DNA of 64,000 bases, taken from assembly GCA_035574275.1 (NCBI GenBank), contig DATLYY010000017.1, forward strand, positions 1,057 through 65,056. The letters are read 5' to 3'. Shown here piece after piece: positions 13,239-29,317 of this stretch (the stretch's first letter is position 1; every line of letters starts with the position of its first letter). The notes below the pieces were generated by a model that saw only the letters and a list, made by a program, of their open reading frames with translations, ran no database searches and was not told where the DNA came from. The translations under genes were made by a program, and so were the position numbers. The stretch comes from Verrucomicrobiia bacterium (GTDB lineage Bacteria; Zixibacteria; MSB-5A5; DSPP01).

Positions 13239-15368
13239 CTAACAGGGTAACGTCGTACCTGAAAAAACCAGATTCAACTCAAGAACCACATCCGCTGGAG
13301 TTAAATTGCTGGAGCAGTTCAGGTCGGCCACCGAAAGAGGGCAAGTGCCCGTGCCCGCAAAAACACAGTTCAACATCAACACGACATCAGAGGGTGAAAG
13401 CTGTCCATCGTTGGAAAGGTCCCCCTTGATGCCGGAGAAAGGTTTTCGGGGAAGGGTCGTAAAAATCGTGCTATCGACGCGGACTTGTACCCCGCTTACC
13501 ACCAGCGAATCGAACAAACTGGCGGGCGGCGGTACGAAGTGCAGAGTGTAGGTGCCGGGCACGAGAATGCCAGCAAAACTACCGACGGCATCGGTTGTAC
13601 CCTTGGTCAAGGGAACTTCCGGAGAACCAAAGGCCCGCACCCGCACACCGGAAATCGGGTTGGCGGACGAATCGCGAACCGTGCCGGAGAGCTCCACGCC
13701 GTGGCGCAAGGTCAAATTGATTGCCGTGTCATTTACAATGGAAGCTCCCGCAAATGAGGCTCCCGCGAAGCGGGAAGCCAAGGGCGGCGTGTAGGCCAAA
13801 TCGAGTGTGCCCGGCGGAACGACGACTTCATAATATCCGGTTGAATCGGTGTTATCGGAAGGAGTGTATAGTTCGTTTCCGGACGAGGTGATGAAAGCGT
13901 CGAAATCCACCTCGAAGATTGGAATGTTCGACGAATCCCTGATGAATCCCGAAACAACCCGCCCGGAATCGAGCGTAACATTCAGGGTCATATTGGAATT
14001 GAGCGCAAAATTGGGGAAATCTTTGGCCGCCCGGCGGATGGATTTGGGCGGTTCGAATTCGACCGTGTAGCTGCCTGGCACGGCCACCACCGAGTAATTC
14101 CCCAACGCGTTGGTAAAGTGATTGGCTAAAGGCACCTTGGCGCCGGTCGCCGAATTTACAAATTTTATGTTTATGTTGGAAAGCCCGCCACCGCCCGCGC
14201 GCTGCACATTACCGGAAAGGGTGAATCCGGCCAGAACGGTGGCGTTTAATGTTCGGTCGGCGGCTACTGCCACGTGCAAGCTTTCCACCGGTGCCAGACC
14301 GGAAACCACAGGCGGCTGGAAGGTGACATCGTAGGCCCCCGCAGGCACCACGATTTGATAAAAGCCGGTGCCATCCGTGAAATCGAACGGGGTGGGGATT
14401 TTGGTGTTGGTCAGCGTGTCGTGCACGTCGATATCGACGTTGGCCACCCCGGCGTTGTCGCTGGCGCGACGGACGAATCCGGAAAGATACAATCCGGGTT
14501 GCAAGACGAAGTCAATCGACGTATCCTTGGTTACAGGCACAGAAAATTTCAGCCCGGCTATCAATTTGTCATCCACCAAGGGCTCCACGGTTATGTCGTA
14601 AGTCCCGGCTCCCACCACCACCTGATAAAAACCGTTGTTGTCTGTATTGTCGTTTGGCGTGGGGATGCGGGCCTGGGTGGCGGAAACATCAAAGTCCATA
14701 TCGGCATCCCGAACCGGCTGGCTGTTATTGTCGACGACCGTGCCGGAAACGAAAAAGCCGGCTTGCAACACCACGTCCCGTGTCTGGTTGGAGTTGAAGA
14801 TTATCCCCTTGAATTCTGCTGCCACCAGTTTTTGGGCGGCGACGGGGCGATAGGTCAACGTGTAAACTCCATTCGCGGGAAGCACCAATGAGTAAAAACC
14901 GAACGGATCGGTGTTGTCGGTCGGGTTGGGCGTGTAGACCAACTGTCCCGTCAACTCATCGGTGACATTCAAATCAATATCCGGCTGACCCACCCCGGCC
15001 GTATCCCGCACGAAGCCGGAAAGGGTGAAGCCGAGCGGCACGGTGTCGTTGAACACCTGGTTGCCGGAAAGCAGGTAGCCCGTGTTGTAAACGGGTGCCA
15101 GATTGCTGACCGCTGGCGGCGTAAAGGCAACATCGTAGGTGCCCGCGGGCAGGCCAAAGGGCTGGTTCAAATTGTAGTTTCCCAAAGCGTCTGTTTTGTC
15201 AGTCAAAATCCCCACGGGATTGCCATTGATGTCATATAAATCTACATCAACGTTTGCAATCCCTGTCCCGTTGGGATCGGTGATTTTTCCGGACAGGGTA
15301 AACTGGGCCTGCGTTCCGGATGCCAGCCCCAAAATCAAAACGATACTCCAAACCAAACGCCCGAACAT
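13239..15368 (-). CDS. Secreted repeat protein with ~7 CarboxypepD_reg-like (Cna-B/transthyretin-like) domains and a C-terminal dockerin-like double EF-hand module
   Basis: Start set at the internal Met (MFGRLVWSIVLILGLASGTQA signal peptide; GGAGG RBS) rather than 15524. It has repeating ~100-aa units (…SGFVRD…G…D…T….TD..GFY…P.G.Y.L…P). The C-terminus is GDLSNDGQLSPSDVVLMLNCVF…ADLNCSSNLTPADVVLELNLVF…LPC, two dockerin-type Ca-binding repeats. It is the last gene of a translationally coupled operon. Confidence 0.75.
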   Translation of the reverse strand: MFGRLVWSIVLILGLASGTQAQFTLSGKITDPNGTGIANVDVDLYDINGNPVGILTDKTDALGNYNLNQPFGLPAGTYDVAFTPPAVSNLAPVYNTGYLLSGNQVFNDTVPLGFTLSGFVRDTAGVGQPDIDLNVTDELTGQLVYTPNPTDNTDPFGFYSLVLPANGVYTLTYRPVAAQKLVAAEFKGIIFNSNQTRDVVLQAGFFVSGTVVDNNSQPVRDADMDFDVSATQARIPTPNDNTDNNGFYQVVVGAGTYDITVEPLVDDKLIAGLKFSVPVTKDTSIDFVLQPGLYLSGFVRRASDNAGVANVDIDVHDTLTNTKIPTPFDFTDGTGFYQIVVPAGAYDVTFQPPVVSGLAPVESLHVAVAADRTLNATVLAGFTLSGNVQRAGGGGLSNINIKFVNSATGAKVPLANHFTNALGNYSVVAVPGSYTVEFEPPKSIRRAAKDFPNFALNSNMTLNVTLDSGRVVSGFIRDSSNIPIFEVDFDAFITSSGNELYTPSDNTDSTGYYEVVVPPGTLDLAYTPPLASRFAGASFAGASIVNDTAINLTLRHGVELSGTVRDSSANPISGVRVRAFGSPEVPLTKGTTDAVGSFAGILVPGTYTLHFVPPPASLFDSLVVSGVQVRVDSTIFTTLPRKPFSGIKGDLSNDGQLSPSDVVLMLNCVFAGTGTCPLSVADLNCSSNLTPADVVLELNLVFSGTTLPC

Positions 15369-15397
15369 ATTGCCTCCTCTGATGAAAAGCCCCGTTG

Positions 15398-16936
15398 TCA
15401 GCGAATCAAGGCCGCCTTTAAGACTTTCTCCATTCGTTGCAAACCGCTCGTTTCCCGCAGGATTATTTTGCAGAAGTAAACCCCGGATGCGGCCGGTTCG
15501 CCGTTGTCGTTGTGTCCGTTCCAAAACAGTTCGCGCCCGTTTATCTGGCCGCCAGAAAGTTTTTTTTCCTCCTTAAAAACGATTTCCCCCGCTGGGGTGA
15601 AGATAGTGAGCAATGCCTTCCAATTGCCGGACAGAGCAGTCAAATCAACCGGAAAGTATATGAAGGAGTTTACCGCCGGACGAAAGGGGTTGGGATAAGC
15701 ATCCAGAATCCGCTCCTCGCCGGGGGGGGTAATCCGCACCGGCTGGCCGGGGAGCGTAACGTCAATGGTGGTGTCGTTCAATACCTGCACCAACCCTGGC
15801 AGCGTGTCGGCGAGGAAGTTGGTCGCGCCGGCCGGCGGATTGATAACAATCGTGTAACTGTCCGGAGGGACGGCGACTTTGATTACCCCAAATTGGTCGG
15901 CGTTGTCGGTTGGGGTGAACATTTCATTCGAGGGAGGAGGAAATTCGCGAATCACGTCCAAATCAGCAAAAGGCACCGGTTTATTTAGAGAGTCAACGAC
16001 ACGCACGGTCAGAAGGACGCCTCGGTTAAGCGTTTGGGTGATGGAGGTATCCGAAGTCAGCGCAAAAGAGCGCACTTTCTTGGCTACAAAGTGAGAATCT
16101 CGCGGCGGTACGAAAAGAAAATCATACATGTTGCCTGGGGCTACCACGGTCAGTTTGCCCAGCGAATCGCTCGTGTTGCGGGGAAGAAAGATTTTGTTCC
16201 CCAACGTGTCTTCTAAATCCAAATCCACGCCGGCAATCGGCGTTCTGGCTGGATTAAACGTCGTATCGATAGTCGTAGCGGAAACAAAAAAGCCGGAGCG
16301 AATGGTGACGTTAATGACCGTATCGCGGCCGGAAATTTTCACCGTATCCAACTGTAGCCCCACCTGTCTCCGTCCCGGGGCCGGGGCGTAGCGGAAGCGG
16401 TAGGCGCCGTTGGGAATGACGATTCTATAGTTGCCCAAACTGTCGGTCTTGTCGCCGGGGGTGAAAAGACGTTTCTTGCTGACCCAGTCGTCCACCGCCA
16501 AATTGATGGAGTCGATCGGCTTTCCCGCCGTGTCGGTCGCCTGTCCAGCGACGGCCCAGCCAAATCCAAGACGTATGTCCGGCAGGACGCGCGATGAAAA
16601 AAGTGGGACGCTTAAAGTTTCCTTTGCAACCAAATTTGTGTTATACGGATAGAGCGGATCATAAGTAATCCGATATGTGCCGGGTGTGCTGACGCAAACG
16701 CTATAATAGCCCGAAGAATCGGTGTTATCGCAAACGTAGGGCATTTTGAACCCCAGTAAGAAGAAATCCAAATCAACTTTCCGCACTGGTTTGCCATTGG
16801 CATCCACTACGCGCCCCTGTATAGTGAGTTGAGGGGGAGCACAAACCTGCGGACACTGGCAAAAGCTTTTCTTGGGGATTACGGTTAGTAGGGCGAAGGA
16901 CATTCCCAGGAAGAGAACGGGACAAAATTTGGACAT
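15398..16936 (-). CDS. Secreted repeat protein (CarboxypepD_reg-like domains) with a T9SS C-terminal sorting domain (Por_Secre_tail/TIGR04183-like)
   Basis: Signal peptide, then repeats paralogous to the 13239-15368 protein. The C-terminus …YPNPFRPAVNSFIYFPVDL…LLTIFTPAGEIVFKEE…GRELFWNGHNDNGEPAASGVYFCKIIL…EKVLKAAL matches the T9SS CTD consensus. Confidence 0.8.
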   Translation of the reverse strand: MSKFCPVLFLGMSFALLTVIPKKSFCQCPQVCAPPQLTIQGRVVDANGKPVRKVDLDFFLLGFKMPYVCDNTDSSGYYSVCVSTPGTYRITYDPLYPYNTNLVAKETLSVPLFSSRVLPDIRLGFGWAVAGQATDTAGKPIDSINLAVDDWVSKKRLFTPGDKTDSLGNYRIVIPNGAYRFRYAPAPGRRQVGLQLDTVKISGRDTVINVTIRSGFFVSATTIDTTFNPARTPIAGVDLDLEDTLGNKIFLPRNTSDSLGKLTVVAPGNMYDFLFVPPRDSHFVAKKVRSFALTSDTSITQTLNRGVLLTVRVVDSLNKPVPFADLDVIREFPPPSNEMFTPTDNADQFGVIKVAVPPDSYTIVINPPAGATNFLADTLPGLVQVLNDTTIDVTLPGQPVRITPPGEERILDAYPNPFRPAVNSFIYFPVDLTALSGNWKALLTIFTPAGEIVFKEEKKLSGGQINGRELFWNGHNDNGEPAASGVYFCKIILRETSGLQRMEKVLKAALIR

Positions 16937-16938
16937 TT

Positions 16939-18732
16939 TCAGAATTCCACGCGCACATTGAGCCGGTTTAAAACGGCGTTGTCAATACGGGGCGCAAAAG
17001 CGTCACCTGGATTGAACAGCCCAAAACTGTAACCTATATTAAAGCGCCGCCAAATTTTTTCTACACCAATAATAAAATCGATTTCCCAGCCCAGATCCTT
17101 GGACACGGCGTTAGGGACGACCGGCGGCGTGATTAAATTGGAACGGACGTTGTTGTCCAGCCGGTGCTGGCGGTAGGTGTGAAAGACCGCATCGACTGAG
17201 ACCTGCTTGTGGGGGCGGAAGCCCGCGGCGGCGGTCAGAACCTGCAAATTGGCCAGCTCGGGGTCCAAAACCTCGCCGTAGTATTGAAAATTGGCAAACC
17301 CGCCGAAGCGCCCGGAGTTGTCCTCGTAGCCGGTCTGGCGAAACTCCTGTGAAATGGTATCACTGCTGCTCTTGTCGCCGGAGCCCAAAGCATATCCCAA
17401 AGTCAAGCTGGGCCGAAAGGAAAAATTCGTCGCGGCAAAGGTGGCTCCCGCATCAAAGGCATACGCCTCCTGATCCCGCTGCTTGTCGGTACCGCGCAAA
17501 AGCGAGGCCTGCACCCAGCCAGTTACAAATTTCTTCGGGCGGCCGTAATAGGAAAGCCCCCAATAGACCGGCTCCCGGTTGCGGAGGTCGGAGTCCCAGC
17601 GTTTCAGCATATACACGTTCGCCTCGTTTTTTCCATCAGGAATAAATCGAACCCGGAAGAGCAAATCATCCCACGTGCGGTATTTCTCGTTCTTAAAAGG
17701 AAAAAGGGAGGGAAGAAAAGAGGCCTCCAAAACCACCGGCTGGGTTTCATAAACATAAAGCCGTACGGCATCCAGATATTCGTCAAAAAGCCACTCCCGT
17801 TTATCCCGCACGCGCTGTTTGCCGACCATCAAAGCCGCCTTTCGTCCCGCCGGGGCGCGCAAGAGCAGGTAGGCCTGAATGGCTTGAAATTCAAACCGGG
17901 TGGACTCCGCCGTGGAGGGGCGGTTCGGAAAGGTACCGAAGGTGTATTTTTTCCGCAGCCGCAGCTGAAAGAAGCTTTGCACCTCCGGTGCCCAGTTGCC
18001 TGCCGCCTCCAGCCGCAGGGCCGGTTCGGTATCCTGATAATCATCCTCCTGCACGTCGGAAAGGGTGTAACTTTTTTCCAAGCGCGTGGTCTGGCGGTAA
18101 TCGCCGGAGAAAAGCATCCGTTCCCCCACGCGAATGTGGGGAACGTTGGCGCTCCCTTCGTCGGCGGTCAGGTTGCCGAAAAGTTCCTCTTCCAGATAGC
18201 GGGCCGAGCCATACAGGTCGGTTTCCTCGGTCACCAGAATTTTCAGGCCGGAAATCTCGATGGTGTCCGGCGGTTTGCTGTCGAAAGCCATTCGGGTTAT
18301 CGTCCCCTTAATTTTGTCCGACGCCTTGATTTCGTTCCAGTCGATTTTGTCCGCCGCCCAAGCGCCAGATTTGCTCACGTTGCAGGTAACTTCCAGCCGC
18401 ATTCCCTCCTTCAAATTTTCCAGCCCGCCGGCGCTTTCCCCCCTTGCCGGGAAAAGGGTTTTGGCATCCACTTTGATTTTTAATCCGAAGAGAAGGAAGG
18501 AGGAATCGGCTTTGTTCAACTTTTCGATGGCGCCGCGCAGCTTGGGCCGGCGGGCTTCCGCCAGTTTTTCCACCGACTTGGCGTCAAAGATGCCCTTGTT
18601 CCAGCTGCCGGAAACCTCCACGCCATCCCCTTCTTTCAGCTTGGTATAGGGCCCGGCTTCCGTGCTCTTGATTCCCCCAAGCGTCAGGGCAAAGGCAAAA
18701 AGCCCCGGCACCATCCAGATTCTACTCAACAT
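16939..18732 (-). CDS. Outer-membrane beta-barrel protein (C-terminal …RLNVRVEF; possibly an alginate-export-like polysaccharide porin) with an N-terminal periplasmic DUF5666-like domain
   Basis: Signal peptide. The N-terminal ~180 aa is paralogous to the upstream ORF 18732-19367 (…RRPKLRGAIEKL…LFGLKIKVD…ENLKEGMRLEVT…IKASDKIKGTITRMAFDSKPPDTIEISGLKILV). The C-terminal ~400 aa has alternating amphipathic strands and ends in aromatic F. The start overlaps the upstream stop (TGATG). Confidence 0.7.
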   Translation of the reverse strand: MLSRIWMVPGLFAFALTLGGIKSTEAGPYTKLKEGDGVEVSGSWNKGIFDAKSVEKLAEARRPKLRGAIEKLNKADSSFLLFGLKIKVDAKTLFPARGESAGGLENLKEGMRLEVTCNVSKSGAWAADKIDWNEIKASDKIKGTITRMAFDSKPPDTIEISGLKILVTEETDLYGSARYLEEELFGNLTADEGSANVPHIRVGERMLFSGDYRQTTRLEKSYTLSDVQEDDYQDTEPALRLEAAGNWAPEVQSFFQLRLRKKYTFGTFPNRPSTAESTRFEFQAIQAYLLLRAPAGRKAALMVGKQRVRDKREWLFDEYLDAVRLYVYETQPVVLEASFLPSLFPFKNEKYRTWDDLLFRVRFIPDGKNEANVYMLKRWDSDLRNREPVYWGLSYYGRPKKFVTGWVQASLLRGTDKQRDQEAYAFDAGATFAATNFSFRPSLTLGYALGSGDKSSSDTISQEFRQTGYEDNSGRFGGFANFQYYGEVLDPELANLQVLTAAAGFRPHKQVSVDAVFHTYRQHRLDNNVRSNLITPPVVPNAVSKDLGWEIDFIIGVEKIWRRFNIGYSFGLFNPGDAFAPRIDNAVLNRLNVRVEF

Positions 18733-19367
18733 CAGTCCCTCCTGTTAAGATTTTTAACCGCCTGATATTTGACTCCGGTCGAAACGGCGGCGGCTTTTTC
18801 CGCCGCTCCAGGAGTAAATGTGGGGGACTCCGTTCCCCACGGCCCGAAAAGGTCCGTCCCCTCCACGACCAAAATTTTAAGGCCCGAAATTTCAAAGGTG
18901 TCCGGCGGGGTGCCATCGAAGGCCAGACGGGTCACTGTCCCTTTCACCTTGTCCGAGGCCTTCAGTTTGCCGATTTCGATTTTCCGGGCAATCCAGTTTC
19001 CGTTCTCGTCCACCCGCGAGGTGACCTCCAAGCGCATTTTTACTTTCAAGTTTTCGAAACGCATGGCCTGGCCGCCGTTGTCCATAAATTCGGTTTTGTC
19101 GTCCACCTTGATTTTCATTCCGAAGAGGACAAAACTTTTTTCCTGCGGCAAAAGCTTGAAGATGGCCCCGCGCAGCTTGGGGCGGCGGGGATCCGGCAGC
19201 TTTTCAATGTCGTCGGCTGTGAAAACACCGGCTTTTTTGTCCCATTCGCCGTCCACCTCCACGGCGTCCCCCACTTTCAGCTTCATATACTCCGGCTTGG
19301 GGGAGGCCGCAGCCGGGGCGATTAAAAAGAGCAAAAGCGACGGGACTACAAAAAACTTCTTACGCAT
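18732..19367 (-). CDS. Periplasmic DUF5666-like protein (paralogue of the N-domain of the downstream outer membrane protein)
   Basis: Start chosen at the internal ATG (MRKKFFVVPSLLLFLIAPAAASP; GAGGAG RBS). It is ~60% identical to the N-domain of the 16939-18732 protein over two sub-repeats (GTVTRLAFDGTPPDTFEISGLKILV). Confidence 0.65.
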   Translation of the reverse strand: MRKKFFVVPSLLLFLIAPAAASPKPEYMKLKVGDAVEVDGEWDKKAGVFTADDIEKLPDPRRPKLRGAIFKLLPQEKSFVLFGMKIKVDDKTEFMDNGGQAMRFENLKVKMRLEVTSRVDENGNWIARKIEIGKLKASDKVKGTVTRLAFDGTPPDTFEISGLKILVVEGTDLFGPWGTESPTFTPGAAEKAAAVSTGVKYQAVKNLNRRD

Positions 19368-22109: not shown

Positions 22110-23847
22110 CCCGTCCGGCTTCGAGGTAGACCACCTGGTTGGCTAAATTCAAAAAATTGAGTCGGTGGGTTATCAAAAGCAGGGTGCGTCCCTCCTTCAA
22201 GGCCGAAAGCGCCTCCTGGGCCACCTTTTCCGCCTGCGGGTCCAGCCCGGTGGCCGGTTCGTCAAAAATCATGATGCGCGAATCCCGCAGGGCGGCACGG
22301 GCGAAGGTGATGCGCTGGCGCTGCCCGCCGGAAAGGGTCTGGCCGCCTTCTCCCACCAGGGTGTTATACCCCTCCGGCAAGTTATGGATAAACTCGTCCG
22401 CCCCCACTTTGCGGGCGGCCGCTATGATTTCGTCAAAACCCGCCTTCGGATTACCGAAGGCGATGTTTTCCATAATGGAGGTGCGGAATAAAAACGCCTC
22501 CTGTGAGAGTGAAGTGATTTGCTTGCGCAAGGATTTGATGCGGTACTCCCCGATTGGCAGCCCGTCCAGATAAATACTCCCCCTGGAGGGGTCGTACAGC
22601 CGCAAGATGAGCTTGGCGATGGTCGACTTCCCCGCGCCGCTCGGCCCGATGATGGCGGTGGTCTTGCCGGCCGGCAATGTAAAGCTCACCTCTTCCAATG
22701 CCGGTTGTCCCGGCTGATAGGCGAAGCGCACCTTGTCGAAGCGAATTTCACCTCTGATATCCCGGGCGGAAATCCCCTCCGGCCGATCGATGACTTCCGG
22801 CTGAATGTGCAGAATTTCCAAAATCCGCTCCCCGCAAACGGTGGCCTTGGCAGTGCGGGCTGAAAGCTGTGCCACGTCTCGTAACGGCTTGTAGGAAGTC
22901 CGTAAATAGGAAAGAAAAATCAATAGATTACCGGCGGTAAGCTGTCCGGCCAGAACCTGCTTGACACCGAAAAATAAAACTAAGACCGTTCCCAAAGCAG
23001 TCAAAACATCCACCCAGCGGGAATAGGCCGCTTCCAGCTTGGTCGCCTTGAGCCCCGCTTTGACGTCGGAGGAAACCGATTTCCCCAACAATTTTTCGTG
23101 CCATTTTTCCCGGCCGAAAACCTTGGTCACGCTGATGCCGGAAACTCCCTCGTAGGCGGCAGCGGAAAGCTGCCCTTCCTTTTTGCGCGCTCGGCGGGAG
23201 GCCTCCTTGATTTTTCCAGAAAAGCGGAAAGTCGTCAAAAAAAGAAAGGGCATCACGGCAAAGGCCAGAAGCGTCAGTTTCCAGTTCATATAAACCATCA
23301 GCCCAAGCATTCCCAAAACGATGAAAATCCGGCTCCCCAAGGTGATGAAAATCGAAGTCAAAAGCTCTTTCAATAGATTGATGTCCCCGGTCAGCCGCAT
23401 CAAAAGCTCGCCGGTCTGGCGGTAATCGTGGTAGCTTTGCGGCAGGCGCTGGATGTGGGAAAAAAGCTCCAGCCGGATGGCACCGGAGAGTTTCTGGCCG
23501 ACGGAGGCAAACAAAACGTTCTGGGCGTAGGAGAAAAGCGCCCCCAAGAGGGCCAATAGAATCACTCCGCCGGCCGCCAGAGTCAAAACCGCCATCGGGT
23601 CCCATTGGGAAAGTGGAGCCAAAAAGCTCCAATCCTTGTGCGCACGGGAAGGAATCAAGATGTAGTCGAAAACAATCTTCAGCGGCCAGGGGCGGGCCAG
23701 CTCCACCAAAGCCAGACCCAAAAGCGAAAGTCCGCCCAACGCCAAGCTTTTTTTATGCGGCTTTAGGTGTTTGCCGAAATGGTGGAAAATCCGGGAAAGT
23801 CCGGCCCAGTCCACTCGCGCAAATGGGGATTTGAATTTGAAGGCCAT
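21985..23847 (-). CDS. ABC exporter, fused transmembrane and ATP-binding domains (MsbA/ABCB-like half transporter)
   Basis: Six-TM N-domain followed by an NBD: Walker A GPSGAGKST, signature LSGGQRQRITFARA, Walker B IMIFDEPATGLD. Start taken at MAFKFKSPFARVDW. Confidence 0.85.
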   Translation of the reverse strand: MAFKFKSPFARVDWAGLSRIFHHFGKHLKPHKKSLALGGLSLLGLALVELARPWPLKIVFDYILIPSRAHKDWSFLAPLSQWDPMAVLTLAAGGVILLALLGALFSYAQNVLFASVGQKLSGAIRLELFSHIQRLPQSYHDYRQTGELLMRLTGDINLLKELLTSIFITLGSRIFIVLGMLGLMVYMNWKLTLLAFAVMPFLFLTTFRFSGKIKEASRRARKKEGQLSAAAYEGVSGISVTKVFGREKWHEKLLGKSVSSDVKAGLKATKLEAAYSRWVDVLTALGTVLVLFFGVKQVLAGQLTAGNLLIFLSYLRTSYKPLRDVAQLSARTAKATVCGERILEILHIQPEVIDRPEGISARDIRGEIRFDKVRFAYQPGQPALEEVSFTLPAGKTTAIIGPSGAGKSTIAKLILRLYDPSRGSIYLDGLPIGEYRIKSLRKQITSLSQEAFLFRTSIMENIAFGNPKAGFDEIIAAARKVGADEFIHNLPEGYNTLVGEGGQTLSGGQRQRITFARAALRDSRIMIFDEPATGLDPQAEKVAQEALSALKEGRTLLLITHRLNFLNLANQVVYLEAGRVAEQGTVEELLDKKGKFFAFYQEWLGQNEKRNLFESAVAGE

Positions 23848-23848
23848 A

Positions 23849-25042
23849 TTATCTTTTATCCACCAGCGATTTGAAAATCGCTTCGACATTCTTCAAACGA
23901 TTTTTCCAGCTATGCTTTTCACAGGCAGCTTTTTGTGCCTGTTTTCCCAACTGTTCTCCCAACTTTCGTTCGCTTTTTAAGCGAAGCAGAGCGGAGACCA
24001 ACGCTTCCGGGTTTTCCGGCGGAACCAAAAGGGCGTTCTTGCCGTCCTCTAAAATTTCTGCCACCTGCCCGATTCGGGAAGCCACAATCGGGCGTCCCGC
24101 CGCCATATACTCAAAAATCTTGAGCGGGGAGAAATAGAAGCCGTCCATCCGCGGATAGGGTGCGACCAAGGCGTCCAGCATTTTTAGTGTTTTTGGAATC
24201 TGTTCAAAATCGACCGCGCCGGTGAAAGCGACCCGGCGTTGAAGATTCAGCTTTTGGGACAATTTCTCCAAAGAGGGGCGCAAAGGCCCTTCACCGACGA
24301 TTTTCAGTTCAAAACCCTCGCTTTCCGGCAACCGTCGGAACGCCTCCAGCAAAAACTCCAGCCCATGCCACGGCTTCAAGCTGCCGACAAATCCGACAGT
24401 GAACTTCTTCTTCCTACTCTTTTCTGGTTTTCCGTTCGAGGCCCGAACTTTAAGAAAGGGCCTGACGTCGACACCGTTCGGCACAACCGTAACAGCCGCC
24501 TTGGGCGCAACGGAATGAATGTAATCCTTGACCGCATCGGAAACGGCCACAAGATGGCCGGCGTTGGAAAAAAGATATGCCTCTACCGCCTTGGCCAGCG
24601 GTTCCAGCGCCAACTGTCGGTTGGTCTTCGCCTCCTCCACCAAGGGGGAGTTGACTTCCAGAACAAAGGGGAGCCGGCTTTCCTTTGAAAAGGAAAGCCC
24701 GGCAATGCCGAAAAGCGAATAGCGCTCATACACCAAATCAAACTTTTTGGTTTTTACCTGCTTCAAAAGCTTCCGCAAGCCAAAGTTTTGCGCAAACGCC
24801 TTGCTTTCAGCCAGAAGATGAAATTCTTTTGAGTTTTCCTGGTGGAAAAAGTCCGCTTCTACTTTCGGCAGCTCAAAAATATCTTTGGCCTTCTTATTTG
24901 AATCGCCGAGTCGAGCTACAACCGTCGTCACTTTATACCCCGTTTCCTTGAGCGCTTTGGTAAATTCCCGGATGTGGATGGAAGCCCCCTTCGTTCCCCA
25001 GTATGGAATGCCGGAGTCAAATGACAAGTACAGAATCTTCAT
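23849..25042 (-). CDS. Glycosyltransferase family 4 (GT-B, retaining)
   Basis: GT4 C-terminal motifs (…ALVAPYPRMDGFYFSPLKIFEYMAAGRPIVASRIGQVAEIL…); 397 aa; overlaps neighbours by 4 nt. Confidence 0.85.
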   Translation of the reverse strand: MKILYLSFDSGIPYWGTKGASIHIREFTKALKETGYKVTTVVARLGDSNKKAKDIFELPKVEADFFHQENSKEFHLLAESKAFAQNFGLRKLLKQVKTKKFDLVYERYSLFGIAGLSFSKESRLPFVLEVNSPLVEEAKTNRQLALEPLAKAVEAYLFSNAGHLVAVSDAVKDYIHSVAPKAAVTVVPNGVDVRPFLKVRASNGKPEKSRKKKFTVGFVGSLKPWHGLEFLLEAFRRLPESEGFELKIVGEGPLRPSLEKLSQKLNLQRRVAFTGAVDFEQIPKTLKMLDALVAPYPRMDGFYFSPLKIFEYMAAGRPIVASRIGQVAEILEDGKNALLVPPENPEALVSALLRLKSERKLGEQLGKQAQKAACEKHSWKNRLKNVEAIFKSLVDKR

Positions 25043-26322
25043 ACGTCTTTCCCAGCCAGCGAGGCAGCGGGCGTTTCGGCGTGAATGCCCGGCAAGCTGT
25101 TTTCCACTGACTGCCGGTAATAGCTCTCCAAAGTCGCCGCGCTTTTTTTCAAATCAAACCGCTCTTCTGCCTTCTTTCTTCCTTCCCGTGCCAAACGGGC
25201 CGCCCAATCAGGAGAGGAAAGTGTTTTCTCGATGGCTTCGGCCAAAGCCGCCGGATTGTTCGGCGGCACCAAAAGCCCATTTTTTCCGTCATTCACAATT
25301 TCCGGTATCCCGGAAACGGTGGTGGAAACGACTGGACAGCCGGTTCCCAGCGCTTCCAAAAGCACGGTCGGCAGAGCATCCTGATTGCCGTCGGCATCCA
25401 CCGTGCAGGGAAGGGCCAAAAGCGACGCCCGCTTTAAATGGGGAAGCACCTCGGCCTGGGTCTTGGGGCCCGCAAAGCAAACGAGACCGTCCAAACCCAA
25501 TTCACGGTTTCTGGCTTCAAGTGAACTCGCTTGTTCCCCCTGGCCGATAATAACGCAGCGGAAGGGGATTCTCTTTTGTTTCAAAATGGCGCAGGCTTCC
25601 AAAAGGTCGGGAAAGCCCTTTTTGGGTACCAGCCGGCCGATGGAAAGGATAAGATTTTTTTCTCTTTGCAGATCCGGTTCATAATTGAAAAAATCCAAAT
25701 TGATGCCGTTGTATAAAACCTTGATTTTTTCCGCCGGAACCGAAGGATAAGTCGATGTCAAGTAACGGCGGTTGAACTCTGTGACCGTAATTACAAAACC
25801 GGCGGCTTTAAGCTTTTCCTTCAGCATTTTCTGGTTGACGGAGTCCTGAAAAATATCCTTGGCGTGGGCGGTAAAGCTGAAAGGCAACCCGGAAATCCGG
25901 CTCGTAAAGTAGGCCGCCGTTGAAGGCAGGCTGGCAAAATGGGCGTGCAGGTGCCCCAGCCCGCTCTTTACGGCGATAGCGGCCGCCCAGGCGGTGCCGA
26001 AAAAGAGTTCCATAAGCTGGGGATCGTTTTGGGGAATCAGCGTCTCCAAAAGTTTCCAAAGCTCGGCACGACAGGGAGAAAGGGTGGGCCAGTTTTCAGC
26101 CAAAACGGCCCACCCTTTTTTGGGCTCAAGTTCGTCCAGATAGTAAACCGGCGCTTTGATTTCGGCGGTCTGTGGATGAAACCGTCCTTCGTTCGGCTTT
26201 TTCAAGGAAAAAATGGTGACCTCCACTCCCCGGCGCTCCAGCTCCAGAATTTCGTTCAAAATGAAGGTCTCCGAAAGCCGGGGGTACATTTTGACGAAGT
26301 AACCGACTTTGAGTGGATTCAT
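25039..26322 (-). CDS. Glycosyltransferase family 4 (WcaL-like)
   Basis: N-terminus MNPLKVGYFVKMYPRLSETFILNEILELERRG is typical of the WcaL-like GT4 subgroup; E-x7-E region EALGTGCPVVSTTVSGIPEIV. Confidence 0.85.
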   Translation of the reverse strand: MNPLKVGYFVKMYPRLSETFILNEILELERRGVEVTIFSLKKPNEGRFHPQTAEIKAPVYYLDELEPKKGWAVLAENWPTLSPCRAELWKLLETLIPQNDPQLMELFFGTAWAAAIAVKSGLGHLHAHFASLPSTAAYFTSRISGLPFSFTAHAKDIFQDSVNQKMLKEKLKAAGFVITVTEFNRRYLTSTYPSVPAEKIKVLYNGINLDFFNYEPDLQREKNLILSIGRLVPKKGFPDLLEACAILKQKRIPFRCVIIGQGEQASSLEARNRELGLDGLVCFAGPKTQAEVLPHLKRASLLALPCTVDADGNQDALPTVLLEALGTGCPVVSTTVSGIPEIVNDGKNGLLVPPNNPAALAEAIEKTLSSPDWAARLAREGRKKAEERFDLKKSAATLESYYRQSVENSLPGIHAETPAASLAGKDV

Positions 26323-27566
26323 TTCAAGGCCCCTTTTTGTGCGAGAAGCGGCCGACAGAGTTCAGCCAGTTTGCATGCCCCGTCCAAAGGCAAAAGATTT
26401 TTTTCTCGGGCTTCGGTAAGTGGGTTTTTGGGGTTGGCCAAATTGGACATAACCGTTTGATACAGCCGATCCGGCGTTAGTTCCTCCGGTGAAATATAAT
26501 CCACGAGCCCCATTTCAAAAAGTCGGCGGGCGCGCAGGAGCTGCTCCCTGCGCGGATAAATCCGGGGTATAATCAGCGCCCTGCGCGCCGCGCCTAATAT
26601 TTCAACTGTCGTGTTGTAGCCCCCCATCGAAATCACCAAGTCCGCTTCTGCCAGGCGGCTGTGAAGCTCCGGCACAAATTCCTCAAAGCGTAGTGAAAGA
26701 TCCTGGGCCTGGACGGTGAACGCCTTTCGTTTGTTCTCAGGCATAAACGGGCCCAATACGGCCGTGGTTTCGACGGCGAGCCGCTCCCCGTAGGCCAGAA
26801 GCATTTCAATGTAGGCGGCGACAATTTCGGCCCCATCCTCTCCGCCGCCGATGGTCAACAAAATTTTCCTGGTGTCGCCGTTGGCAACATTAGCCGAGGC
26901 GGACAGACGGGCGGAGTCGGCGATAAATCCGGAAAAGCTGGTTTTATCCTTCGCGGCCTGTCCAAAATGATAGGAGGAGACCGGGTCAAAAAACTTCGGC
27001 GTGCCGTAGATGAAAATGCGGTCGTACACTTCATCCAGAATGGGATAAACCCCTTCCGTTGTCCAGGTTTCGCAAACTTTTTCCGGCTCATCCAAAATGT
27101 CCCGTAAGCCCAAAACTAGCGCCGGAGCATCACTTCTGTTTTTCAGTTCCTCGAGGGTACTTCTAATTTCCCCTTTCATCCCGAGGGGAGCATGGTCCAC
27201 CAGAAAGATGTGGGGTTGAAAGGTGCGAACCGCCTCAACAATCAAATTCCGTCGCAGTTCGAAAATTCTCTGGAAGGAGCTTCCCAGCGAGCGGGGTTGA
27301 TAACGGTTTTCCCCCACTTTCACCACCGCCGGCAGCTTGATAAAATCGGTCCTTTCCGGCAGCCGGTAGCGCTCTGCCTGCGGCTGTCCGGTCACGATTA
27401 AAATCGAGCTTTGGAGATAGGAGGACGCAAACGCCTGGGCGATTTTCAAACAGCGCCGGAAATGTCCCAAACCGAAGGTGTCGTGGGAATAGATTAAGAA
27501 CCGGGGAGTTTCGGCCGTTTTTTCGGCGCCGGTGACCGGTACGTCGGGGACGGACTTAAATTTCAT
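26319..27566 (-). CDS. GT-B fold glycosyltransferase (GT28/MurG-like or PseG-like, GxGHxxR N-motif)
   Basis: HDTFGLGHFRRCLKIAQAF is a MurG/GT28-type Gly-rich motif; the C-terminal half is a nucleotide-sugar binding domain (…LVISMGGYNTTVEIL…). Confidence 0.65.
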   Translation of the reverse strand: MKFKSVPDVPVTGAEKTAETPRFLIYSHDTFGLGHFRRCLKIAQAFASSYLQSSILIVTGQPQAERYRLPERTDFIKLPAVVKVGENRYQPRSLGSSFQRIFELRRNLIVEAVRTFQPHIFLVDHAPLGMKGEIRSTLEELKNRSDAPALVLGLRDILDEPEKVCETWTTEGVYPILDEVYDRIFIYGTPKFFDPVSSYHFGQAAKDKTSFSGFIADSARLSASANVANGDTRKILLTIGGGEDGAEIVAAYIEMLLAYGERLAVETTAVLGPFMPENKRKAFTVQAQDLSLRFEEFVPELHSRLAEADLVISMGGYNTTVEILGAARRALIIPRIYPRREQLLRARRLFEMGLVDYISPEELTPDRLYQTVMSNLANPKNPLTEAREKNLLPLDGACKLAELCRPLLAQKGALK

Positions 27567-28978
27567 ACTTCTCCCGGTTTCTGCCCCATTCCAAGATAGG
27601 CAAACCCATGGCGGGTCAAAATTTCAGGTACCAGCAGATTGCGGGCATCCACAATATTTTTAGCCTTCATCCGCTCCCCGACGGCTTCCCAGTCCAACGC
27701 CATAAACTCCGGCCATTCGGTCAGGATTGCTAAAGCATCCGCTCCTTGGGCCGCCTCTTCCGGTTTGGGAGAAAGTTTTAACTCCGGCCAGAGCCTCTTC
27801 GCCTCCGCTTCCGCCACCGGGTCATAGGCCTGCAAAAATGCCCCTTTGGCCGCCAGCCGTTTCATCACTTCCAAGGCCGGTGAACTGCGCAAGTCGTTGG
27901 TGTGGGCCTTAAAAGCCAGACCCAGAATACCGATCGTTTTTCCTTTCAAGTTCCCGAGCAAGCTCTCCAGTTTCTCCACAACTTTATCCGGTTGACGGCG
28001 GTTGGCTTCTTTCACCGCCTCGGCAATGGAAAGTTGCACCCCATTTTTTTGAGCTAAATTCAAAATCGCTTCCAAATCCTTCGGCAGGCAGGAGCCGCCG
28101 AAGCCGGGACCGGGGCTTAAAAACTCCGGGCTGATGCGGGAATCCAACCCCATCCCGCGGGTCACCTCGGTGACATTGATTCCGGCCGCGTCGCACAGAT
28201 TGGCCAGTTCGTTGGTAAACGTCACCTTGGTCGCCAGAAAAAGATTGGAGGCGTACTTGATCATCTCCGCCGTTTCGTTGTTGGTGACCACGATGGGGCA
28301 GGCATCCATCATCCCGACCCGGTAAAGCTGGGCGACCGTCTCGATCGCCTTCGGGCGGTCCCCGCCGATGACAATCCGCTGCGGCCGGAAAAAATCCAAA
28401 ACCGCCGTCCCCTCCCGCAAGAATTCCGGATTGGAAACGACCGCAGTTTGTTTTTTTTCGGCTCCGTTTCGGAACAACAAGTTTCGCACCTGCGAAGCGG
28501 TGCCAACGGGCACGGTCGATTTCAAAACAACTATCTGCCTAGGCTCCAGCAGGGAAATTAAATTTTCAATCACTTCAAAAACAGCCGACAAATCCGCCTC
28601 GCCGGAGGAAAGGGAAGGGGTTCCCACAGCCAGGAAGATGGCTTGCGCCCCTTTAACTGCTTCCGCCAGTTCCGAACGAAACGACAACCGCTGCCGACGC
28701 AAATTCGCGGCAATCAACTCCGGCAAGCCGCGCTCGTAGATGCGCACCTTCCCGGCGCGCAATTCATCCAATTTTTGCGAATCTTTTTCGACGAGTGAAA
28801 CGGTATGGCCGAATTGGGCAAAACCAGCCGCCGCCACCAGCCCCACAAACCCGCCGCCGACAACGGCCACCCGCAGACCAGTGGGGGGATAAACGGGTAG
28901 GCCGGACTCGGTCGCCAGCCCGTGCGAAAGCCCCTTTTCCTCGAAGACTTCAGCCGGTTTGGCGGGCGTGCGTTTCAA
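27563..28978 (-). CDS. ugd: Nucleotide-sugar 6-dehydrogenase (UDP-glucose 6-dehydrogenase family)
   Basis: Rossmann motif VAVVGGGFVGL, catalytic region GFGGSCLPKD and a UDPG_MGDP_dh C-terminal domain. The annotated start is TTG; a GTG about 108 nt downstream is an alternative. Confidence 0.85.
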   Translation of the reverse strand: MKRTPAKPAEVFEEKGLSHGLATESGLPVYPPTGLRVAVVGGGFVGLVAAAGFAQFGHTVSLVEKDSQKLDELRAGKVRIYERGLPELIAANLRRQRLSFRSELAEAVKGAQAIFLAVGTPSLSSGEADLSAVFEVIENLISLLEPRQIVVLKSTVPVGTASQVRNLLFRNGAEKKQTAVVSNPEFLREGTAVLDFFRPQRIVIGGDRPKAIETVAQLYRVGMMDACPIVVTNNETAEMIKYASNLFLATKVTFTNELANLCDAAGINVTEVTRGMGLDSRISPEFLSPGPGFGGSCLPKDLEAILNLAQKNGVQLSIAEAVKEANRRQPDKVVEKLESLLGNLKGKTIGILGLAFKAHTNDLRSSPALEVMKRLAAKGAFLQAYDPVAEAEAKRLWPELKLSPKPEEAAQGADALAILTEWPEFMALDWEAVGERMKAKNIVDARNLLVPEILTRHGFAYLGMGQKPGEV

Positions 28979-29317
28979 TTTCCCATCCTTGGCGGGCCGC
29001 TTTTCCTACGCGGGAAGAGGACCGGGTGGCCGCACATTAGTTCATCGATGGAGCGATTGACTCTACTAACAGTCAAAAGAATACCAACCGCTCGGCTGTT
29101 TGTCAACCAGGCAATGGGCAAAGCAGGGCCGGGCACTTGGTTTTTTGAAGAAAAATCAACCTGCATCCGCGCATTGCAAGAGAGGAGTATCAAATCGGAT
29201 GCCGGGGTAACGGCAAATTGCCAACTTGAAGATTGACAGGCAATTACGAGAAAAAACGGGGTGTTCTAATCCCCCGCAGGTCTGGTTTATTTCAACCGGT
29301 CGGTTGATTTCAACCAA

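Follow-up and report, generated by a model that had tools for sequence, protein, structure and literature searches.

Synthase-dependent exopolysaccharide secretion is represented by the alginate proteins AlgE, AlgK, and AlgX, and also by PelB for Pel and PgaA for PNAG. Export of cyclic β-1,2-glucan and periplasmic glucans combines an NdvA/ChvA ABC exporter with an OpgB-type phosphoglycerol transferase, and the Bacillus subtilis spore-coat pair cotSA-cotS encodes a GT4 glycosyltransferase and a CotS/YtaA-type APH-fold kinase. The A-LPS of Porphyromonas gingivalis is a lipid-A-anchored O-polysaccharide, made in a Wzy-dependent way and delivered along the LPS route. In P. gingivalis, the C-terminal domain (CTD) of T9SS cargo is cleaved, and the cargo is then joined to anionic LPS (PMC8545088, PMC4560394). 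In E. coli O9a, WbdD phosphorylates the non-reducing end of an O-polysaccharide of the ABC-transporter pathway, a precedent for glycan phosphorylation ahead of ABC export (PMC3482155).

Here, we examined the minus strand of positions 13239-28978 in the window (the whole stretch of 64,000 nucleotides that was analyzed), which holds 11 co-directional genes with every junction either overlapping or separated by a gap of ≤29 nt:

27563..28978, minus strand, nucleotide-sugar 6-dehydrogenase (Ugd), operon gene 1
26319..27566, minus strand, GT-B glycosyltransferase, GT1/GT28-C-like, core gene 1
25039..26322, minus strand, GT4 glycosyltransferase a
23849..25042, minus strand, GT4 glycosyltransferase b
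21985..23847 (alternative start 23889), minus strand, half-size ABC exporter
20661..22028, minus strand, kinase 1, APH/choline-kinase fold
19360..20667, minus strand, kinase 2, paralogue of kinase 1
18732..19367, minus strand, stand-alone DUF5666 protein, secreted
16939..18732, minus strand, AlgE-type outer-membrane beta-barrel with N-terminal DUF5666
15398..16936, minus strand, CTD repeat protein, secreted
13239..15368, minus strand, dockerin-tail repeat protein, secreted, last operon gene

Three of the overlaps are ATGA. The genes for GT4 b and the ABC exporter are 1 nt apart, or overlap by 41 nt if the earlier ABC start is used, and further overlaps join the ABC and kinase 1 genes (44 nt), the two kinase genes (7 nt), kinase 2 and the DUF5666 gene (8 nt), and the DUF5666 and barrel genes (1 nt, TGATG). 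The barrel and CTD protein genes are separated by 2 nt, and the two repeat protein genes by 29 nt, with GGAGG preceding the dockerin-protein start. Inspection of all intergenic gaps found no room for a terminator between operon genes, and promoter-like and terminator-like matches inside the operon were no more frequent than in shuffled sequence. These junctions bear out the preliminary description of the region as a single co-directional, translationally coupled block. Domain searches agreed with its account of the contents, in which glycan synthesis is combined with an MsbA-type ABC exporter, two APH-fold kinases, a barrel of the AlgE type, and a pair of secreted repeat proteins. Assigning HMMs to each ORF confirmed or supported the domain calls, with the barrel matching Alginate_exp and the kinases APH. 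The layout is also non-canonical, as had been claimed, in that signatures of Wzx/Wzy, Wzm/Wzt, synthase, and LPS-core systems are all absent from the operon.

The core order GT1-GT4-GT4-ABC-kinase 1-kinase 2 was kept in ~30 well-flanked loci from more than 10 phyla, including Actinomycetota. At 24–40% identity, the co-linear core was found in Zixibacteria, Krumholzibacteria, Ignavibacteria, Eisenbacteria, Myxococcota, Nitrospiraceae, and Planctomycetota, and also in Woeseia, Verrucomicrobiota, Gemmatimonadota, Rhodothermaceae, Paracoccaceae, Acidimicrobiia/Actinomycetota, and Chloroflexia. Occurrence was counted over the 31 loci with enough flanking sequence: GT1, GT4 a, GT4 b, and kinase 2 were each present in 29, the ABC exporter in 30, and the DUF5666-AlgE-type barrel in 21, none of them from Actinomycetota. 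Some diderm loci, from Gemmatimonadaceae (L006), Rhodothermaceae (L025), and Lacipirellulaceae (L026), had no barrel nearby. Ugd (8 of 31), the two-component genes described below, and the CTD and dockerin-tail proteins (13 and 14 of 31) are accessories of Zixibacteria, Ignavibacteria-labelled, and Krumholzibacteria loci. What is conserved is the unit GT1-GT4-GT4-ABC-kinase-kinase, the barrel being optional. Neighborhood conservation, proposed earlier as a check on the system, was thus strong, and the genes are co-conserved elsewhere. These observations of gene content, order, coupling, and co-conservation are direct, as are those of gene fusions and protein folds. We found no curated family or publication covering the cassette, and no described pathway matched it. 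In other phyla, genes for an AlgX-like SGNH protein and for a member of the sulfatase/phosphodiesterase family lie near it (L091 and L005), as do those for right-handed beta-helix proteins (L088, L090, and Planctomycetota loci), and these neighbors point to a hydrophilic polysaccharide product.

Among the sugar enzymes, the Ugd protein scored 451.6 bits against TIGR03026 (cut-off 189.8), has three Pfam UDPG_MGDP_dh domains, and matched TuaD (428 bits) and AglM (341 bits), each under its equivalog cut-off; by sequence, it is most like a UDP-glucose 6-dehydrogenase. The GT1/GT28-C-like enzyme belongs to a "predicted glycosyltransferase" family, with 38.8 bits against Glyco_tran_28_C (cut-off 22), and its closest solved structures are YjiC-type UDP-glycosyltransferases (E = 1.6e-9). 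A receiver domain, with or without PAS, is fused N-terminally to GT1 in about one-third of the homologues among the matches listed, and also in L091; the enzyme is probably a regulated initiating step. GT4 a has Glycos_transf_1 (2.2e-38) and Glyco_transf_4 domains, and over its whole length it most resembles exopolysaccharide GT4 enzymes of the EpsE/WcaL type, with a full-length match to the EpsE model NF041876 of 204.8 bits against a cut-off of 400. GT4 b has Glyco_trans_1_4 (5.3e-34) and Glyco_transf_4 domains and scored 134.9 bits against TIGR04063, under its cut-off.

The half-size exporter consists of ABC_membrane (2.2e-48) fused to ABC_tran (1.5e-32), and its translation contains Walker A (GPSGAGKST), signature (LSGGQRQR), and Walker B (IMIFDEP) motifs. 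MsbA models were among its best ABC matches (391–399 bits; cut-offs 602–780), the NdvA model gave 311 bits (cut-off 733), and we infer from sequence that the protein performs the inner-membrane export step as a member of an MsbA/HepA/NdvA-like fold class. Both kinases have an APH domain (67 and 49.6 bits; cut-off 23.2), are of the small-molecule type, and retain catalytic-loop and metal-binding residues. Kinase 1 has an additional N-terminal domain of ~150 residues. Kinase 2 (APH, 5.7e-13) shares 24% identity with kinase 1 (E = 8e-20), and its residues H313, D315, D332, and D334 were invariant across 15 homologues. The CotS models matched the kinases weakly (E about 4e-4). A fusion of the two kinases (~800 aa), ordered kinase 1 then kinase 2, is found in most other lineages and was the dominant form among the best 150 profile matches. 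ABC-kinase fusions also occur (L089, 1379 aa; P0334, 1404 aa) and place the kinases at the exporter's cytoplasmic face.

The stand-alone DUF5666 protein has a signal-peptide-like N-terminus and a DUF5666 domain (62 bits, 6.2e-17), and is 54% identical to the barrel N-terminus over 177 residues (E = 7e-56). A separate DUF5666 gene occurred only in the window and L007, and sequence similarity marks the protein as having arisen by recent duplication of the periplasmic module at the barrel's N-terminus. The barrel protein combines this module with Alginate_exp (91.4 bits; cut-off 25.2) in an AlgE-type, 18-stranded barrel of the polysaccharide-porin type. Each of six lookups with the barrel as starting point led to the cassette, and the barrel would be the outer-membrane exit of the pathway. 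The alignable AlgE pore-ring residues Arg353, Arg362, and Arg459 (PMC4118822) are not conserved in it, so selectivity for an anionic substrate lacks support. The same DUF5666 sub-type, with RRPKLRG and KASDKxKG motifs, serves histidine kinases P0218 and P0219 as their periplasmic sensor, and one of these kinases adjoins the receiver-GT1 fusion heading the cassette in L091; DUF5666 looks like a product-binding module.

In every complete Zixibacteria-, Ignavibacteria-, and Krumholzibacteria-labelled locus, the barrel gene is followed by one for a repeat protein whose tail is of the T9SS type, down to 34–43% identity. In the window, this CTD protein has beta-sandwich repeats (CarboxypepD_reg, 2.9e-11), and its tail is supported as a T9SS type-A-like C-terminal sorting domain, partly through its orthologues. 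The last 115 residues align with the final ~90 positions of the PorU (E = 2.8e-8) and PorZ (1.3e-6) models, with YPNPF, GVYFCKI, and KVLKAALIR motifs, and the orthologues have canonical T9SS tails, although the window protein itself scored 18.3 bits against TIGR04183, under the curated cut-off of 23. The second repeat protein is paralogous to the first (30% identity, E = 1e-30), with about eight CarboxypepD_reg/SdrD_B-type repeats (CarboxypepD_reg, 2.3e-39; SdrD_B, 2.6e-19). Its proposed dockerin tail draws its sole support from the clear duplicated dockerin repeats of orthologues L010-L013, as the window protein matched Dockerin_1 only weakly (12.3 bits, E = 0.21).

Upstream of Ugd, the following features were identified:

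29078..29106, minus strand, sigma-70-like promoter candidate TTGACA-17-TATTCT with upstream TG, a consensus match only
29318..32152, minus strand, two-component pair, from Pfam domains
29318-30715, minus strand, sigma-54-type response regulator of the pair
30716-32152, minus strand, HAMP histidine kinase of the pair

The promoter candidate lies in the 340-nt gap preceding Ugd and matches 10 of 12 consensus positions, tying for the top score among 11 matches in 12.5-30 kb; no other match with that score has the extended TG. Upstream of it, after the response-regulator gene, lie a terminator-like hairpin and T-run (~29245-29275; z-score not significant). Of the 31 loci, 12 have an orthologous response regulator upstream of the cassette, and the pair of kinase and regulator occurs in L002, L007, and L009-L013. 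A search for a sigma-54 promoter preceding the operon found none, so the link between regulator and operon is one of adjacency alone; on that basis, the pair likely regulates the operon.

We favor, with moderate confidence, the reading that this block is a dedicated system building, phosphorylating, and exporting an envelope glycan. Since its core of six to seven genes recurs in one order across many phyla and fits no pathway described so far, an envelope sugar polymer is the probable product, made, phosphorylated, and exported by the operon. In the proposed mechanism, for which the substrate, the phosphorylation target, and all transport steps are read from gene content, the glycan would be started on the cytoplasmic side by the GT1/GT28C-like enzyme and extended by the two GT4 enzymes. 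UDP-glucuronate from Ugd means that, in the window's lineage, the glycan may contain uronic acid. The paralogous APH-fold kinases, at the ABC ATPase side, would add phosphate to the glycan or its carrier, either to finish the product or to license it for export, and the product would then cross the inner membrane via the half-size ABC exporter. In outer-membrane bacteria, it would exit via the AlgE-type barrel, bound by the barrel's periplasmic DUF5666 module, which is duplicated here as a free periplasmic protein. The repeat proteins, with their T9SS-type and dockerin tails, may be surface partners of the glycan (matrix, scaffold, or anchor) in lineages of the FCB group, the superphylum to which Bacteroidota belong.

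The cassette contains neither a priming phosphoglycosyltransferase nor a polymerase or chain-length gene, and its product may be polymeric, a short oligosaccharide, or a glycolipid. A phosphorylated membrane glycolipid (e.g., a tri-glycosyl lipid), flipped by the MsbA-like exporter to the outer leaflet of the inner membrane, with the barrel and surface proteins separate or secondary, would suit this gene content, with its just three non-processive-type GT-B enzymes. Lipid glycosyltransferases occur in the GT28/GT1 and GT4 families (a monoglucosyl-diacylglycerol synthase model matches GT4 b at 1.4e-12), lipid flippases fall within the MsbA/PglK fold class, and Actinomycetota cassettes work without a barrel. 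However, we consider this product rather unlikely, as the barrel is dedicated to the cassette, a polysaccharide-porin-type barrel is hard to square with a lipid-anchored product, and the periplasmic AlgX-like and beta-helix neighbors suggest a soluble polymer.

The preliminary description had proposed an anionic or phosphorylated glycan as the surface anchor for the T9SS cargo encoded in the operon itself, following the covalent attachment of cargo to A-LPS in Porphyromonas, which PorU carries out. The T9SS-tail protein following the barrel in all complete Zixibacteria, Ignavibacteria, and Krumholzibacteria loci, the match of its tail to PorU and PorZ, and the acidic glycan that could arise from Ugd and the kinases are consistent with this. 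As a basic function, it does not hold. The core is present in Planctomycetota, Proteobacteria, Nitrospirota, and Myxococcota, in which T9SS is, to our knowledge, undescribed, and in Actinomycetota, so cargo anchoring cannot be the core function. Nor does the pairing of Ugd with kinases argue generally for an anionic glycan: Ugd is a lineage-specific accessory outside the core, absent even from L012 and L017, otherwise complete loci that keep both surface proteins, and the argument therefore turns on an add-on. Furthermore, the tail of the second surface protein is dockerin-like or PKD rather than a CTD, and an AlgE-type pore would free a hydrophilic polymer rather than insert a lipid-anchored LPS. 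Within the window, we found no gene for a T9SS component, a ligase, or lipid A, and among the papers searched, none joined Zixibacteria and T9SS. Covalent anchoring is thus unlikely, with the A-LPS analogy a possibility for the Zixibacteria/Ignavibacteria/Krumholzibacteria version only.

Streptomycin 6-phosphate is exported first and activated after, and by analogy the product could be a small secreted glycoside, silenced by phosphorylation in the cell and exported by the ABC protein. The kinase folds are closest to APH-type small-molecule and antibiotic kinases, the GT1 relatives YjiC and macrolide glycosyltransferases use small aglycones, and gene fusion couples kinase to exporter. Against this, clustering of all neighboring ORFs revealed no tailoring gene conserved with the cassette, whether for an aglycone, a cyclitol, an aminotransferase, or another such function, no conserved phosphatase was found for re-activation, and the wide, uniform distribution, DUF5666 sensor, and receiver-GT fusion better suit an envelope component; we regard such a glycoside as very unlikely. 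An LPS inner-core-type module with WaaP/WaaY-like sugar kinases and an MsbA flippase is extremely improbable, disfavored by tests in this analysis, though GT4 enzymes, two kinases, and an ABC protein with MsbA models among its best matches resemble core-oligosaccharide assembly.

Returning to the favored envelope glycan system, the cassette can be set against the described pathways. The cotSA-cotS pair has neither ABC exporter nor porin and belongs to another cell-envelope context. In contrast to synthase-dependent secretion, the cassette encodes neither a membrane-embedded synthase (Alg8/BcsA/PgaC) nor a c-di-GMP receptor or a TPR scaffold; it would export across the inner membrane by an ABC exporter, its periplasmic module is DUF5666 rather than TPR, and the alignable AlgE ring arginines are not conserved in its barrel. 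As in P. gingivalis (PMC8545088, PMC4560394), a glycan locus accompanies a protein with a T9SS-type C-terminal domain, and the glycan may be acidic and phosphorylated, but the operon has no lipid A, ligase, Wzy, or Wzx genes, its export would run through an AlgE-type pore, and the core also occurs outside phyla with described T9SS. Like the NdvA/ChvA system, the cassette has an MsbA-like ABC exporter, which there moves a soluble, cytoplasm-made glucan to the periplasm, and the sulfatase-family gene adjoining it in L005 and L091 recalls OpgB-type decoration by sulfatase-family transferases. Unlike that system, it has kinases and no giant GT84 cyclic glucan synthase, and its dedicated outer-membrane porin implies release rather than periplasmic retention. 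The O9a/WbdD pathway (PMC3482155) differs in using Wzm/Wzt, where the cassette has a fused MsbA-type half-transporter, and in its methyltransferase and coiled-coil ruler, absent from the window operon. The cassette kinases have the APH fold and an N-terminal domain of their own, WbdD being absent from the best 60 fold matches, and the outer-membrane route would be a porin, without lipid A ligation. With O9a/WbdD, the cassette shares GT4-type cytoplasmic glycan assembly, a kinase that would act before ABC export, and a functional coupling of kinase and transporter that, in the cassette, is sometimes a physical fusion.

Within positions 13239-28978, we found 11 long open reading frames (ORFs), all on the minus strand. 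In order, they encode a nucleotide-sugar dehydrogenase (Ugd), a GT28-C-like glycosyltransferase (GT1), two GT4 glycosyltransferases (GT4a and GT4b), an ABC exporter, two APH-fold kinases (kinase 1 and kinase 2), a DUF5666 protein, an outer-membrane barrel, a repeat protein with a T9SS-type C-terminal tail (the CTD protein), and a repeat protein with a dockerin tail. Start codons were picked from ribosome-binding sites and homologue lengths, and the following junction spacings depend on these starts:

Ugd/GT1, GT1/GT4a and GT4a/GT4b: ATGA overlaps
GT4b/ABC exporter: gap of 1 nt (overlap of 41 nt with an earlier ATG)
ABC exporter/kinase 1: overlap of 44 nt
Kinase 1/kinase 2: overlap of 7 nt
Kinase 2/DUF5666 protein: overlap of 8 nt
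DUF5666 protein/barrel: TGATG overlap
Barrel/CTD protein: gap of 2 nt
CTD protein/dockerin-tail protein: gap of 29 nt, with GGAGG inside

Every junction either overlaps or leaves a gap of ≤29 nt, bearing out the tightly coupled block proposed in the preliminary description. The junctions leave no space for an internal terminator, and terminator-like and promoter-like matches inside the block were not commoner than in shuffled sequence. A 340-nt gap precedes the block, upstream of Ugd, and includes a sigma-70-like site, TTGACA-17-TATTCT, at 29106-29078, with the joint top consensus score among 11 promoter-like matches in the scanned region. We rejected a sigma-54 promoter that would tie the operon to the neighboring NtrC-type regulator: the gap (28978-29318) contained no match with ≤2 mismatches, no GG-N10-GC element was consistent across eight orthologous upstream gaps, and the sigma-70-like site is the only candidate. 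A terminator after the response-regulator gene was also set aside, as the hairpin and U-run 3' of that gene have an ordinary folding energy (z -0.83). The 3' end of the block lies 14 nt from a convergent ChlI/ComM-type gene.

Elsewhere, the window contains the following features:

7012-11468, plus strand: two neighboring amidohydrolase-family genes with a slight overlap, the larger unusually big (1032 aa, several amidohydrolase segments)
32149-33105, minus strand: NAD-dependent sugar epimerase/dehydratase gene, upstream of a histidine kinase
~33180-48349: phosphate-acquisition-type region adjoining the regulators, comprising the next seven entries except the 544-aa ORF
33180-35320: OmpR-type regulator and PAS histidine kinase
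35807-36526: second OmpR-type regulator
36774-39710: TonB-dependent receptor with a CarboxypepD_reg N-domain
40069-41703, plus strand: 544-aa ORF between the receptor and the porin-like gene, with no Pfam match at E ≤ 1
41870-43099: phosphate-selective porin O/P, weak match
43755-46671: PstC/PstA/PstB-like ABC genes
47354-48349: PHO4 phosphate transporter
49147-54974, minus strand: complete RND efflux operon, comprising the next three entries
49147-52302, minus strand: AcrB-type pump
52299-53387, minus strand: membrane-fusion protein
53400-54974, minus strand: outer-membrane factor

The epimerase/dehydratase gene has no ATG, GTG, or TTG ahead of its Rossmann motif, VVTGGAGFIGSH. Its frame opens after the TGA at 33105-33103, and the sole plausible start, an ATC at 33090, lies 6 nt past GGAGGA, which suggests a non-canonical ATC start. 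The mechanically called ORF (32149-32952) is without the NAD-binding N-terminus.

We then compared each gene of the block with family models, and the functional labels of the preliminary description were largely upheld. Ugd passes the subfamily model TIGR03026 (451.6 bits against a cut-off of 189.8). It falls below the cut-offs of the equivalogs TuaD (428.5 against 700) and AglM (340.8 against 670), though both scores far exceed those of the UDP-ManNAc dehydrogenase models (164-179 bits), and its sequence is most like UDP-glucose dehydrogenases. GT1 belongs to the GT-B enzymes and carries a GT28-C signature; its nearest solved relatives are GT1 UDP-glycosyltransferases, and the two GT4 enzymes come directly after it. 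The ABC protein is a fused half-transporter (PF00664 and PF00005) with intact Walker and signature motifs. It fell well short of every cut-off for the MsbA lipid A flippase (TIGR02203, 391.4 of 602 bits; PRK11176, 335.7 of 867; TIGR02204, 398.9 of 780.4) and matched only the generic ABC_membrane and ABC_tran architecture. As for a Wzm/Wzt pathway, the block contains no ABC-2 Wzm permease with a separate Wzt, the half-transporter being its only ABC protein.

Both kinases score above the cut-off of the APH model (PF01636) and have the kinase fold, HxD loop, and DxD site. They are paralogues with 24% identity, and both are probably active, since each has an invariant DxD metal site and invariant His and Asp residues in its catalytic loop. 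Tested against the LPS core heptose kinases WaaP/WaaY, they did not qualify by closeness of fold or sequence within an LPS core locus. Among NCBIfam curated models, none reached its cut-off for the kinases, and the DUF5666 protein and the barrel had no match whatever.

The small DUF5666 protein (18732-19367) is secreted. The 597-aa barrel protein (16939-18732) combines DUF5666 with Alginate_exp (PF13372, 91.4 bits against a cut-off of 25.2, residues 208-585). A barrel profile built from 21 homologues matches AlgE chains (E 8e-19), and the fold is an 18-strand beta-barrel closest to AlgE. A ten-residue electropositive pore ring in AlgE (Lys47, Arg74, Arg129, Arg152, Asp162, Asn164, Arg353, Arg362, Arg459, and Arg485) selects polyanionic alginate (PMC4118822). 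We gave up using this ring to probe for an anionic substrate, as its three alignable residues are not conserved: Arg353 and Arg459 both correspond to variable positions, the latter occupied by Gly in the window protein, and Arg362 corresponds to an insertion, with the other seven falling outside the aligned stretch. Partners of an alginate synthase system (an Alg8/Alg44-type synthase and the AlgK TPR lipoprotein) were absent from the 11 genes, their flanks, and the related loci. The structural description of the operon and the claim that its layout is non-canonical both stand.

The last two genes encode paralogues with CarboxypepD_reg/SdrD_B-type repeats, and we accept their T9SS and dockerin labels with a caveat because orthologues in related loci carry canonical tails. 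The tail of the CTD protein (15398-16936) has the expected T9SS motifs and aligns with the last ~90 positions of the PorU (E 2.8e-8) and PorZ (E 1.3e-6) models, and its orthologues end in canonical NFPNPFN...GxYFY...KMLLxK tails, but the generic CTD models stay below threshold (TIGR04183, 18.3 bits against 23; PF18962, 12.3 against 27). The dockerin-tail protein (13239-15368) matches PF00404 weakly (12.3 bits, cut-off 22.9, E 0.21); of its two repeats, GDLSNDGQLSPSDVV is good and the other degenerate, but its orthologues in loci L010-L013 have two clear dockerin repeats. T9SS components (PorU, PorV, Sov/SprA, and PorK-N) were not found among the Pfam-scanned genes of the 64-kb window, which comprise all but a few smaller ORFs.

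To place the block among related loci (L numbers), we took kinase 1 homologues, their gene neighborhoods, and 80 loci from species-representative genomes, and mapped all window proteins onto the loci. Presence was counted in the 31 loci with sufficient sequence on both sides:

ABC exporter: 30 of 31
GT1, GT4a, GT4b and kinase 2: 29 of 31 each
Barrel: 21 of 31
Dockerin-like repeat protein: 14 of 31
CTD-like repeat protein: 13 of 31
Sigma-54 regulator: 12 of 31
Ugd: 8 of 31

The gene order and single strand of the window are nearly always kept. Co-conservation, on which the preliminary description had staked its proposal, is strongly supported, with GT1, GT4a, GT4b, the ABC exporter, and kinase 2 each found in 29-30 of the 31 loci. 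L002, L007, and L009-L013 repeat the entire layout of 11 to 13 genes, upstream kinase-regulator pair included, with kinase identity to kinase 1 down to 26-38%. L017 (Krumholzibacteria) keeps the core, barrel, and both repeat proteins, is without Ugd, and has no detected upstream kinase. All of these loci are labeled Zixibacteria, Ignavibacteria, or Krumholzibacteria. The six-gene core alone also occurs in Eisenbacteria, Myxococcota, Nitrospiraceae, Planctomycetota, Woeseia, Verrucomicrobiota, Gemmatimonadota, Rhodothermaceae, Paracoccaceae, Acidimicrobiia/Actinomycetota, and Chloroflexia. Relatives were also seen in MAGs labeled Chitinophaga, Woeseia, Planctomycetota, and Gemmatimonadota. In an independent test starting from the barrel, all six barrels looked up (29-48% identity) lay directly in the same cassette. 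None of the four well-flanked Actinomycetota loci has the barrel, which fits a component of the outer membrane. Searching 1.84 billion cluster representatives with a profile gave 3456 kinase-1-type proteins at E ≤ 1e-30, so the kinase family is large (>3400, counted in cluster representatives at 50% identity). As to the source bin, a protein 100% identical to the window barrel is labeled Verrucomicrobiae at NCBI and some close relatives Limisphaerales (P0104, P0105, P0005, and P0007), the nearest relatives on longer contigs are labeled Zixibacteria, and the bin's taxonomic label looks unreliable.

Gene fusions link several components. In most lineages, kinase 1 and kinase 2 form, in that order, a single ~800-aa protein. 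At L089 (5862-10001), the ABC exporter and APH kinases are one 1379-aa protein, and the homologue P0334 is seemingly a similar fusion (~1380-1400 aa for the two). Going by these fusions, the kinases act on the cytoplasmic face of the exporter, where its ATPase lies. Methyltransferase genes lie on both sides of the L089 cassette. In about one-third of the GT1 homologues listed, a receiver domain, in many cases accompanied by PAS, is fused to the N-terminus. At the head of the L091 cassette (1-3549), a histidine kinase gene precedes such a receiver-GT1 fusion, and its periplasmic sensor is of the same DUF5666 sub-type as the barrel N-domain, with RRPKLRG and KASDKxKG motifs common to both; this arrangement suggests product-sensing feedback. 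Sensors of this sub-type occur in histidine kinases P0218 and P0219. The stand-alone DUF5666 protein shares 54% identity over 177 aa with the periplasmic module at the N-terminus of the barrel and is a recent copy of it; no locus other than the window and L007, the nearest relative, has such a separate gene, and elsewhere the barrel directly follows kinase 2. On the simplest reading, DUF5666 would bind the exported product in the periplasm, at the pore mouth and as a feedback sensor controlling GT1.

In other phyla, neighbors of the cassette include an AlgX-like SGNH protein, sulfatase/phosphodiesterase-family proteins, and right-handed beta-helix proteins, all belonging to periplasmic enzyme types seen alongside secreted polysaccharides. 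Outside the FCB group, the superphylum that includes Bacteroidota, beta-helix proteins of ~770-800 aa flank the cassette in several loci: L088 (1-1478), L090 (1-2030), and, downstream of the barrel, L032, L037, and L041. Their role may be to act on the product as polysaccharide lyases or epimerases. All-against-all ORF clustering of 50 loci identified the beta-helix proteins of Planctomycetota loci as the only real further conserved neighbors, two additional "families" being spurious antisense ORFs in high-GC loci. L003 and L004, from another metagenome, are arranged differently: the cluster there brings together an ABC exporter, a histidine-phosphatase gene, several sulfotransferase genes, and four to five paralogous members of this kinase family, with no glycosyltransferase among the genes listed.

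From the gene content, order, coupling, co-conservation, fusions, and folds observed here, we infer each step of the following pathway. A hydrophilic glycan would be assembled on the cytoplasmic side by GT1, GT4a, and GT4b, and glucuronate from Ugd may be part of it in the window lineage. The exporter-associated kinases would phosphorylate the glycan as a completion or export-licensing step, the ABC exporter would pump it out, and in diderms it would be released through the DUF5666-AlgE barrel. We judge this mechanism, taken whole, to be somewhat probable. That the exporter flips a phospho-glycolipid as its product appears unlikely.

The barrel is steadily paired with both CTD-tailed and dockerin-tailed repeat proteins in Zixibacteria-, Ignavibacteria-, and Krumholzibacteria-labeled loci, which argues for a functional link between glycan and repeat proteins, whether as matrix partner, scaffold, or anchor. 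The preliminary description had proposed an anionic or phosphorylated glycan that anchors the operon's own cargo, by analogy with the A-LPS to which T9SS cargo is covalently attached in Porphyromonas. The evidence does not lead to this analogy: the core occurs in phyla without a described T9SS and in Actinomycetota, Ugd is dispensable even in the complete relatives L012 and L017, AlgE-type pores pass soluble polymers rather than lipid-anchored LPS, and no T9SS, ligase, or lipid A gene was found among the Pfam-scanned genes of the window. We consider such an anchor improbable, and a phosphorylated small secreted glycoside slightly more so. The reading as an LPS-core-type module, with several tests against it, is rejected as highly improbable.

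Returning to the phosphorylated, exported glycan, a broader and more doubtful proposal, which we offer tentatively and only as a joint whole, is an undescribed secretion route spanning phyla. Tandem APH-fold kinases docked on the MsbA-type exporter, and in some lineages fused to it, would phosphate-tag a cytoplasm-built glycan as an export licence, and the tagged glycan would pass a dedicated DUF5666-AlgE porin. The DUF5666 module would also serve as product sensor, with a feedback two-component circuit controlling the first glycosyltransferase, and FCB-group bacteria would have recruited T9SS-tailed and dockerin-tailed surface proteins.

The papers searched contained nothing on the cassette's gene combination, nor on DUF5666 function, COG4671, alginate export with aminoglycoside phosphotransferase, or Zixibacteria with T9SS. 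We rate the cassette as a widespread, uncharacterized pathway, probably for glycan assembly and export, in which an MsbA-type ABC exporter is joined by an AlgE-type porin and by APH-fold kinases that are tandem and obligate. It is not the curiosity of one metagenome bin: Zixibacteria, Planctomycetota, Proteobacteria, and Actinomycetota share its gene order, and the kinase family alone has >3400 cluster representatives. Were the model true, a new and widespread pathway for an envelope polymer would be defined, DUF5666 would gain a role in binding or sensing glycans, and there would be a second, independent case of phosphorylation gating glycan export. For uncultured FCB-group lineages, it also suggests a connection, open to testing, between T9SS- or dockerin-tailed proteins and a secreted glycan.

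Surface glycan export is usually sorted into Wzx/Wzy, Wzm/Wzt or KpsMT ABC transporters, and synthase-dependent secretion. The cassette mixes parts of these schemes, combining an MsbA-type ABC exporter and an AlgE-type porin with a conserved APH-fold kinase pair that, to our knowledge, no described glycan export scheme uses. The closest functional precedent is the E. coli O9a pathway, in which WbdD phosphorylates the glycan ahead of ABC export (PMC3482155). The cassette differs from WbdD/O9a in transporter class, kinase family, and outer-membrane route.
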